Shown here: piece by piece, positions 48,001 through 51,000 of the stretch
How the letters are laid out: each line of letters opens with the position of its first letter
Position numbering within the stretch: the first letter of the stretch is position 1
NCBI GenBank assembly: GCA_047603125.1
Contig: JBLKOU010000003.1
Coordinates: 1 to 56,862 of the forward strand
Reading direction: 5' to 3'
Length of the DNA: 56,862 nucleotides
Source: Candidatus Woesearchaeota archaeon
GTDB taxonomy: Archaea; Nanobdellota; Nanobdellia; Woesearchaeales; DATGWN01
Made by a program: the position numbers

Positions 48001-51000
48001 TTTAGGAGTGCTTGAGCACAAATACCAAAATCTCGAATGTAAAACTCTTGAAAATGACCCAGTGATGTCTGAAAATAATGACCATTAAAACACTGCTCCA
48101 CAATCTGGCGACAAATCTGTATTGGATCCCCGCTAAATTGAGTGAAGGGTTTTTTTCTTCTCTTAAACATTCGCCATCCTGATTCGAGATACGGGTGCAT
48201 ATAGACTCTTTTAGCAAAAATGTTTATAAAAGTAGTCGTTTTTTGAATCACTAAACCCTTGTCGTATAGTCTGGATAGTACAAGGCCCTCCTATGGCATA
48301 CATTGCGAAGTAAGGCTTAGACCCGGGTTCGAATCCCGGCGAGGGTATTTTACTAAGGGATTCGAACATCTGCGTAATCAAAGATTACTTGACTTTCTCG
48401 TTACACTCGAAAGAATCCCGGCGAGGGTATTTTACTAAGGGATTCGAACATCTGCGTAATCAAAGATTACTTGACTTTCTCGTTACACTCGAAAGAATCC
48501 CGGCGAGGGTATTTTACTAAGGGATTCGAACATCTGCGTAATCAACATAGAGAATCTTAAAAAAATAAGAAAAAAAATTAAAAAGTTAAATATTTTGATG
48601 CAAAACCACCAATAACCGGAATGTCTTTTTGATTCAAGTTAATAGCGTTAATAAGACCAATTATCCAAAGAATAAACAATCCAACTTGAATTAATAAGGC
48701 TATTGGTACAACGAGAATTAACCCTAACCCGAATGTCACTATTCCAATAATTGTTGATAATATTGAAATAACGAATCCTGCAATAAACGAAATAATCAAA
48801 AGATTTAACGCTTGTTTTACATGAAACTTTGTCTTTGTGTTTTGTGCTTTTTTATCGACAAAATACCAAATTATCCCAACAAGTATATAGGATAAGGCAC
48901 TGACGACTTTGTCATTTTGACCCATGTTTTTTCCCCCTTGCTTCATATGTTCGAAGCAAAACCATACCGTCTAATATGGATAATCCTTTATAACTATTTT
49001 GGTTATATGGGCGTCATCCAATATTCTTCAAAAAGAGCACGCAGATTTTGCTCAAGAGTCCCACTTTGAGAATCGTGCGAAAATTCGTCTGCAACTTTTC
49101 GGATTTTCATCCTCAAGTTTGAAAGAGGCTTTCAAACAATCACCGAATTTTCTGATCTTGCTGCAAGGTGCTCTTCTTTATTCTTTTTTGTATAAAGCCA
49201 GTTGTGCATCAAATCAATGCCAAAACTCCGTTAATAATAAACTGAATACCAACGACAAGAACGAGTAACCCCATAATCTGATCAATTATCTTTCTCCCGT
49301 TTTTCCCAATAAATTTGAGAACAATAGAAGAATTGCTTAAAATTAAAAATGAAACATAACAAACTGCCATAATTGCACTTATAAGCGTCAACATTTGTAA
49401 AACACCTGTTGCTTGCGCCATTAAAACTATTGTTGCTGTCATTGCTCCAGGACCTGAAAGCATGGGAATTGCTAAAGGAATAAGTGAGAGATCTTGAAGA
49501 TTTCTAGGCTTATGAGCATGCTTTCGCTCATCATCCGCATTTGTCAACATCATAAATGCAATACGTATGATTAAAAGACCCCCTGCAATTCTAAAAGCCT
49601 CAATAGTAATTGAAAAAAAAGAAAGTATGAGATTTCCTGCCATACTAAAGACAATAAGAACACACGCTGCTGTTATTGCTGCATTTTTTGCAATATGGCG
49701 TTTTTGGGCAGGTGTTGCGCTTTTTGCAAGTGTTAAAAATATTGAAGACGTACTAAATGGGTTCATAATAGTAAACAAAGAAGAAAAACAAAGACCAAAA
49801 AAAGCAAGTAGTTCAATCATAGGTGGTTTTCAGGATTTAGCCTTTTTAAACATTTTTGATTTCGGGAGTATTTGGAAGAAAAGACTGAGCACTACTGCAC
49901 CCTCACATTAAATGACATAAACTATGAATTTATACAAATAGTATTGTAACAATATCTACTTATAATCAAAACGTCCACAAGCAAGCACACACACATAGGT
50001 TGATAGTTCTCGAGGTTTTGAAAACATTCTTGGGTGAACACATTTTGGAAAATCAAATTCAGTATGAAAGCCTCGCAGTTCATGCTGATTATTTGCAATC
50101 AGACCTAAACGATTTTGATTTCTATATGCAAAAAATGTTGCAGGAATTTCTGATGAAGTATCATGAGATACATAACCAATTGCAAGCCACTTATTTGCAA
50201 CAAGTAATGTCCCTTTTCTGTGAGGGAAAAATCTTCGTGTATCGAGTATCGAGAAAACGTCTTGTACTTGACTCAAATTGAGAGGAAATGATTGATCGTT
50301 GAGTGCTGATTCTAAAACATCAGTTAAACTGGTCTGTATAAGTTCATATTTGCGATGAAAAAGCGGACTATACGCACTTGTTACTATTCGCTTTGCTTTC
50401 TCCAATGGCGCTGTTTGTACTGATTTTTGTGATCCAAATACCATAAGTAAATGATAAGAGGAAGATGAACTATTTATTTGTTTCTTTTTTTGCAAATAAG
50501 TGTATACTGAGTCGACTCGCAATCCTACCGCGTAAATCAATTTTGCAACAATGTTAATAAATGATGACATTTTTCTTATACTATGCTCTCAGAAAAGTAC
50601 AAAAAACAACTTGAACACCAAGGATATAGTATTGTTGGAGATCATAGTGCGGTAAAAACATGCGGTTGGACAAAAAGCATGATCCGAGGACACGGCGGAT
50701 GCTATAAACTCACTTTTTATGGAATTATGAGTCATCAGTGCATGCAAATGTCAACAAGTCTGAGTTGTGCAAATAGATGTACATTTTGTTGGCGAGGATA
50801 TAAGGCGCCAGTTTCTAAAGGATGGAAATGGAAAACAGATGATCCAGTATTTATTGTAAATGAAAGCAAAAAAGCACATCATAAACAACTCACCGGCTTT
50901 GGTGGCTCACAGAGTGCAAGAAAAGCTCTTTACAAGGGCTCAAAAACAATTAAGCATGTCGCACTCTCACTTACAGGAGAACCATTACAATATCCTCGCA

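Follow-up and report, generated by a model that had tools for sequence, protein, structure and literature searches.

What are the short repeated units that follow several tRNA genes in the genome of a Candidatus Woesearchaeota archaeon, and how did they come to lie there? The genome (here G000) comprises 1.12 Mb in 70 contigs, and the window analysed is the whole of contig C25 (JBLKOU010000003.1), a stretch of 56,862 nucleotides. In this window tRNA-Arg(CCT) is trailed by tandem units, each made up of an inverted copy of the tRNA's own T-arm (the arm), a segment that folds into hairpins (the cargo) and a direct duplicate of the tRNA gene's 3' end. A first-pass annotation had interpreted these units, and others behind tRNA-Gly, tRNA-Met and tRNA-Phe, as bare att cassettes that are moved by the tyrosine integrase encoded beside one of them.

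The array behind tRNA-Arg(CCT)

The array extends over 48331-48545 with a period of 82, 2.6 copies and 100% matches according to TRF. The features of the locus are the following.

48223..48230, + strand: TATA-box-like element 5' of the tRNA gene, read from the sequence; its function is predicted from what is known of archaeal promoters
48256..48347, + strand: tRNA-Arg(CCT) gene (ARAGORN, which calls it from 48255; Rfam RF00005, 45.4 bits)
48294..48312, + strand: intron of 19 nt at canonical position 37/38 (an insertion when aligned to the Rfam family, boundaries from the anticodon stem)
48332..48347, + strand: tRNA positions 58-73, source of the downstream duplicates (sequence read)
48348..48356, + strand: spacer of unit 1, 9 nt, a T-run and possible terminator (sequence read)
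48357..48367, + strand: inverted arm of unit 1, 11 nt, exact reverse complement of tRNA positions 53-63 (sequence read)
48368..48413, + strand: cargo of unit 1, 46 nt, two hairpins (DNA folding), with homology to the cargos of the Met, Phe and C22 units
48374-48388, + strand: hairpin 1 of unit 1, 6-bp stem with a C-AAA-G triloop (DNA folding)
48393-48413, + strand: hairpin 2 of unit 1 (DNA folding)
48414..48429, + strand: direct copy 1 of tRNA positions 58-73 (sequence read)
48430..48495, + strand: spacer, arm (48439-48449) and cargo (48450-48495) of unit 2, identical to unit 1 (TRF and sequence)
48496..48511, + strand: direct copy 2 of tRNA positions 58-73 (sequence read)
48512..48545, + strand: partial unit 3, with spacer, arm (48521-48531) and a cargo that breaks off after 14 nt (TRF and sequence)

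A scan for promoters and terminators gave only chance-level matches, its model being that of sigma-70 and poorly suited to archaea. Elsewhere in the window, whose genes are archaeal in appearance, two tandem genes at 55537-56752 are archaellin-like to judge by their N-terminal sequence only. A dispersed MITE-like repeat of 60-140 bp, which ends in short inverted repeats and contains hairpins, occurs at 49035-49175, 7911, 29589 and 53362; a pattern search finds 57 copies of it across the genome, the full form being ~139 bp and an internally deleted form ~97 bp.

Further units in the same genome

Reading of the sequence, together with TRF and ARAGORN, bears out the units behind all four tRNA genes: those of tRNA-Gly (C10), tRNA-Met (C57) and tRNA-Phe (C69) are single and carry related cargos. 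A fifth array is found at the end of another contig (C22:10216-10379, 87 bp x 1.9), with a G59 variant in both its direct copy and its arm. Its tRNA lies off the contig and is missing from the assembly, the probable reason being that the array broke the contig. The direct copy had been put at the last 16-24 bases of the tRNA; 16 nt of it are an exact tRNA copy, the excess being up to 9 nt of flanking sequence that were duplicated along with them. Likewise, the inverted copy of the T-arm is exact at tRNA-Arg, but the arm of the Met unit has 1 mismatch.

Copies of a tRNA's own tail had been reported for 4 of 41 tRNA rows and no others. With a search for 14 nt of the tail located 30-130 nt downstream, the count becomes 5 of 36 tRNA genes versus 1 of 1260 cross pairs, the single cross-pair match being a neighbouring tRNA gene; the copies are therefore not due to chance. 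Distant second copies of the five tails, including a second Met att copy, were not found in the G000 assembly. A decayed 3' copy behind tRNA-Leu(GAG) (C53:21348-21430) has a different hairpin, resembling the cargo of the 5' modules described below, and no inverted T-arm. Directly behind tRNA-Gly(GCC) (C39, 5982-6052) and tRNA-Gln (C33, 998-1072) there are inverted copies of the genes' own 3' regions, of 13 and 10 nt respectively, with neither cargo nor direct copy.

Distribution across genomes

The units had been thought to be unique to this genome, as their hairpin was seen in 0 of 400 other genomes of the order and the relatives appeared to have no units. This zero arose because the exact hairpin was used as the query. 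The exact G000 sequence, which also has 0 matches in metagenome contigs, is a local variant, and G001 and G009 have the same hairpin with an altered closing pair. A pattern combining the T-arm with its inverted copy matches 12 of 61 genomes and, in the reversed control, 0. A relaxed pattern for the full unit matches 61 of 401 genomes of the order, a tally that takes in G000 itself, some chance matches and the unpublished genome G340, on which no other result rests; the reversed control gives far fewer.

Among 135 tRNA genes examined, which form part of the relaxed-pattern matches, 99 have both arm and direct copy, 25 have an arm without a scored copy and 11 have no arm. Many of the 25 are visibly decayed or gapped units. 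When 6 doubtful rows are dropped, 93 validated units remain, in 47 genomes and behind 37 anticodon labels, with 1-4 copies per locus. A scan of species genomes, which overlaps the order set in that loci of two relatives recur, yielded at least 119 loci; from 124 parsed matches at least 65 more units were validated, in records titled Woesearchaeota, Pacearchaeota, Aenigmatarchaeota, Methanosarcinales, Thermoplasmata, Halobacteriales and several bacteria. Nevertheless, the presence of units is patchy among relatives, and most tRNA genes are without one. Viral contigs gave 7 pattern matches, six of which are chance matches or tRNA clusters. The seventh (L031) is a genuine unit that follows the end of a tRNA, and inspection of the nearby reading frames by eye revealed no recognisable integrase; the viral contigs offered no clear case of a unit next to an integrase.

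Relation to the TLRs of E. coli

The tRNA-linked repeats (TLRs) have been known in E. coli since 1978 and, to our knowledge, have remained without an explanation. They (Rfam RF00391) include tyrT/tyrV rtT, lys/val, proK and rrA/rrB/rrF, and like the archaeal units they are located behind a tRNA or rRNA gene, contain two or more hairpins and form tandem arrays. One account counts 22 of them in E. coli, spread over ten loci; their defining mark is a stretch of 18-19 bp that exactly repeats the upstream gene's 3' end, and they have no known function (PMC8144298). The array behind tRNA-Arg(CCT) lies directly downstream of its tRNA, carries a 16-nt copy of the 3' end and has 2.6 copies, where TLRs range from one to five per locus. 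There are differences of size: the archaeal units are 75-95 bp long and the E. coli TLRs ~120-180 bp, and the archaeal direct copy of 16 nt is shorter than the 18-19 bp of E. coli because CCA is not encoded.

The likeness extends to the position of the junction and, in part, to the arm. In the four TLR regions compared, the direct copies begin at the same T-loop base as those of the archaeal units. Inverted copies of the T-arm are present at tyrV (13/15 nt), proK (13/15) and lysQ (14/15), values that 0 of 200 shuffles reach; tyrT is borderline at 12/15, and four lys TLRs have no inverted arm above chance. Behind the 5S rRNA gene of rrnB, the unit contains the archaeal 10-nt arm motif, which pairs with a partner inside the unit; hairpins and then the direct copy come after it. 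The word 'inverted' has 0 occurrences in one TLR paper, where the inverted arm is thus not mentioned.

The RtT RNA family (RF00391) has no match in the window at E<=10, nor in the G000 loci, with E. coli controls scoring 46-137 bits. Membership of the TLR class therefore rests on layout and not on common descent. Judged by that layout, the archaeal units fall within the definition of TLRs, and the earlier statement that such elements had not been described no longer applies to the class as a whole. A literature search that did not take in the original TLR papers, which may describe the inverted arm, returned no description of the archaeal units. What this locus adds is a measured match between arm and host, a direct comparison with the E. 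coli arms and a broken integrase frame.

Anatomy of the archaeal units

The 93 units have cargos of 36-101 nt (median 48) with a fold conserved over 47 genomes; in all statistics on this set, kin genomes are not independent. The search patterns required the arm core and the start motif at A58, and the conservation of these elements is therefore partly built in. With that proviso, the direct copy has 0 nt extra 5' of A58 in 75 of the 93 units, and in the others the extension never exceeds 2 nt.

It had been suggested that the inverted segment co-varies with the tRNA, and this is upheld by the larger set. At position 57 the arm matches its own tRNA in 90 of 93 units, compared with 48.6 after shuffling. 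The corresponding values are 67 versus 30.2 at position 63, 54 versus 31.3 at position 64 and 38 versus 25.8 at position 65. When shuffling is restricted to within genomes, the matches are 66 of 68 versus 50.6 at position 57, 50 versus 37.4 at position 63 and 41 versus 28.4 at position 64, numbers that 0 of 5000 shuffles reach, whilst the signal at position 65 is lost. A more direct comparison is provided by 19 pairs of cargos that are at least 70% alike and lie behind different tRNAs. In these the arm agrees with its own tRNA in 12 of 12 cases at position 57 and in 13 of 14 cases at position 63; with the partner's tRNA it agrees 0 times at these positions. Thus, the arm is rewritten faster than the cargo. 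Mismatches between arm and tRNA are found at positions 60-62 in 19-31% of units and are often the same transversions, which recur opposite positions 60 and 61 in 13 and 17 of the 93 units respectively.

C-NNN-G triloop hairpins occur in 42 of the 93 cargos, compared with a mean of 3 and a maximum of 9 after shuffling. Triloops of this type are stable in DNA and suit DNA better than RNA, which points to a role as single-stranded DNA. A count of cargo mismatches, used as a wobble-pair test of the strand, gave 10 AC and 6 GT. Taken together, the shared cargos, the arms tailored to the host tRNA and the joining at a fixed point of the T-loop support the conclusion that the units behave as inserts. 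This part of the earlier interpretation is supported; the att cassette moved by an integrase is not.

Mirror modules at tRNA 5' ends

In G000, copies of tRNA 5' ends (15-18 nt) are also found upstream of tRNA genes, with hairpin cargos in between. They are associated with Ser(CGA) on C26 (upstream of 229), with a tRNA-Ser on C32 (three stacked units, C32:4905-5195) and with tRNA-Glu on C39 (C39:34890-34963). Similar modules accompany 12 of 246 tRNA genes in the fetched loci, a few of these being plain gene duplications; the hairpin pattern of the 5' modules has only scattered one-mismatch matches in 61 genomes. A process that touches both ends of tRNA genes is a poor fit to a single tRNA-specific integrase. 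Upstream of tRNA-Ser(GGA), at C19:262-460, there is a 60-bp x 3.3 array with the cargo of the C32 5' units, in which the start of the tRNA is not copied.

The integrase at tRNA-Met

The case for an integrase as the mover came from tRNA-Met, where the unit abuts a tyrosine integrase gene. The adjacency is real: one contig from an independent run contains tRNA-Met, its unit and the start of the integrase and shows no difference, so the Met unit, the locus to which this read check applies, is not an assembly error. Moreover, a displaced 3' fragment of a tRNA is a typical trace of integrases. The gene belongs to PF16795, has the SSV-type R...KxxR...Y residues and matches structures 3UXU, 3VCF and 4DKS, which we take to be SSV1 integrase. 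It corresponds to the C-terminal part of an SSV-type enzyme, with homology beginning within ~10 codons of the second tRNA copy.

Integration interrupts an SSV-type integrase gene at its own att site (PMC5861418), and it is at this junction that the frame is broken by the unit. Read from the second copy, the integrase frame stays open over 267 codons; read from the tRNA, it closes after 39. By comparison, the PF16795 frames of G037 and G016, when read from the T-arm of the tRNA, stay open over 306 and 302 codons respectively, and in five relatives, these two among them, the PF16795 frame overlaps or abuts the tRNA gene with no unit between them. At 83 bp (mod 3 = 2), the Met unit shifts the integrase frame relative to the tRNA. 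As it breaks a frame that is open in relatives, the simplest order of events is that the island arrived first and the unit later. Thus, the integrase is likely to be a gene that was interrupted by the unit rather than the mover of the unit, to judge from the reading frames.

The wider survey agrees with this. PF16795 exceeds the cut-off in 0 of 11 relatives with arms (incomplete assemblies). Profiles built here detect a tyrosine recombinase near 2 of 91 order-level unit loci, namely the Met locus of G000 and one locus with a XerA-like gene, and near 0 of 65 other unit loci, with 1.5-2 kb examined per locus. Four DNA runs, seen as contigs with a depth of ~3-6 in which rare forms are dropped, contain no joint that skips the Met unit or loops over it, and the proposed minimal att site thus gains no excised or circular form from them. 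SSV-type elements and units are alike in having tRNA genes as targets and in duplicating part of the tRNA; however, the former have their att site inside the integrase gene, whereas the units contain no gene and occur without PF16795. The Met unit itself is not in frame with the tRNA segment.

The integrase fragment is part of a small defence island of lower G+C (C57:9416-13448), which also includes a MutH/Sau3AI-type nuclease, an unassigned 215-aa gene and a C5 methylase.

Other candidate enzymes

None of the enzyme families tested tracks with the units. The Y1 HUH family is represented only by a fragment in G000, is present in G002, G035, G050 and G052, and was not found in the incomplete assemblies of G001, G006 and G007. 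In five unit-rich genomes, again incomplete assemblies, Cas1 was found in none and a reverse transcriptase in one. XerA is present in 5 of the 5 genomes tested and, being universal, is uninformative. Copying from the mature tRNA by reverse transcription was considered and rejected, since the copies lack CCA and run into the genomic flank.

The Y1 (IS200-type) transposase fragment of G000 is located at 38117-38290 of the window and is followed by a hairpin-rich stretch. In G007, a unit behind tRNA-Arg(CCT) (C25:11592-12552, L247) has the broken gene of a reverse transcriptase at a distance of ~300 bp.

How the units may arise and spread

Integron attC sites, the attP of CTX phage, IS200/IS605 elements and REP/REPIN sequences are protein-less sites that act as folded single strands, with paired arms in which central mismatches are tolerated. 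The archaeal units resemble the attC, attP and HUH hairpin elements in having paired arms and no protein, and would likewise act as folded single strands. Unlike these elements, they target the universal T-loop of tRNAs and have arms that are rewritten at each locus, and their presence does not follow that of integron, RAYT or Y1 genes. Casposons also recognise the tRNA T-loop; they make a 15-bp target duplication, of which only 5 bp fall within the tRNA, and need terminal inverted repeats (PMC5137440). The units have no terminal inverted repeats, and the five unit-rich genomes examined yielded no Cas1.

On balance, we think it probable, if by no great measure, that these units correspond in archaea to what TLRs are in E. 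coli: protein-less inserts at T-loop positions 57/58 that spread as folded single-stranded DNA by means of a putative enzyme acting in trans. We infer each step of such movement. The arm would base-pair with the T-loop of the target gene at insertion, or else be re-copied from the T-loop at a later stage. A strand transfer at the T-loop or beside it would then join the end of the cargo to A58 and duplicate positions 58-73, so that the tRNA would stay whole. Once two direct copies are present, slippage or unequal recombination could build and trim arrays such as the one with 2.6 copies. The Met unit probably landed on an older junction left by SSV-type integration, shifting the integrase frame. 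In E. coli, raised coverage of the tyrT region has been ascribed to RNA/DNA hybrids and not to circles in a mobilome study, the method of which is blind to single-stranded DNA (10.1101/2024.07.17.603846). That result weighs against this reading, as do the four low-depth DNA runs with no rearranged joint at the Met unit, the lack of any tested enzyme family that tracks with the units, the arm mismatches at positions 60-62, the four lys TLRs with no arm above chance and the absence of an RtT match.

An alternative that deserves weight, although we judge it unlikely, is that the units are copied without any dedicated enzyme. Polymerases of replication or repair would fold back on the T-arm, move by way of the universal T-loop motif to a different unit as template, copy the cargo of that unit and return at A58, with hairpin-templated correction keeping the arms matched. 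This would agree with the failure of any tested enzyme to co-occur with the units, with arms and spacers that are locus-specific while the cargos are shared, and with the duplication of tRNA 5' ends by the mirror modules in G000 and elsewhere. Plain copying would not, however, yield the same transversions opposite positions 60 and 61 time after time, and the conserved two-hairpin triloop cargo suggests recognition by a protein.

A role at the level of RNA, as has been proposed for rtT and RrA/B/F, appears improbable. The units would be transcribed as trailers or small RNAs, the arm pairing with the T-arm and the 3' copy serving as a processing signal. The TLRs behind 5S rRNA in E. coli are indeed transcribed and processed, and bind Hfq and CsrA in vitro, according to the same account of TLRs (PMC8144298); the match at position 57 would fit pairing between RNAs equally well. 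Yet a T-run stands behind most of the tRNA ends, and among 53 tetraloops only 3 are sense-strand loops of the RNA-type GNRA or UNCG classes. With RNA folding parameters, 78 of the 93 units have a sense strand that folds less stably than its antisense counterpart, a difference that composition may drive. The many tRNA genes without a unit, and the patchiness among relatives, also argue against such a role.

There is little to commend the idea that the units are scars of larger islands with deleted interiors: the 25 tRNA genes with an arm and no scored direct copy might be such remnants, but the cargo is tight in length and conserved in fold, no large element with such ends was found, and G000 has no distant copies of the tails. 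Bare att cassettes moved by the neighbouring PF16795 integrase, finally, are largely refuted and very unlikely, given the broken frame at the Met junction, the lack of co-occurrence across genomes and the occurrence of units behind 37 anticodon labels and of modules at 5' ends.

Implications

With their constant junction and arms fitted to the host, the 93 aligned archaeal examples convert the puzzle of the E. coli repeats into predictions open to test, these being the site of the cut, the base pairs that must match and a fold of DNA type. The Met locus adds an order of events, with the unit arriving after the island. A wider and more tentative proposal is that an ancient class extends from the E. 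coli TLRs to DPANN archaea, in which the arm could act as a base-pairing guide for insertion at the T-loop of tRNA genes of nearly every kind, by means of a folded single strand and a putative strand-transfer enzyme. By landing on integration junctions, members of such a class could disable SSV-type integrases, as at tRNA-Met. Should a guide-like arm and an enzyme of this kind exist, they would constitute a new mechanism for the targeting of tRNA genes.
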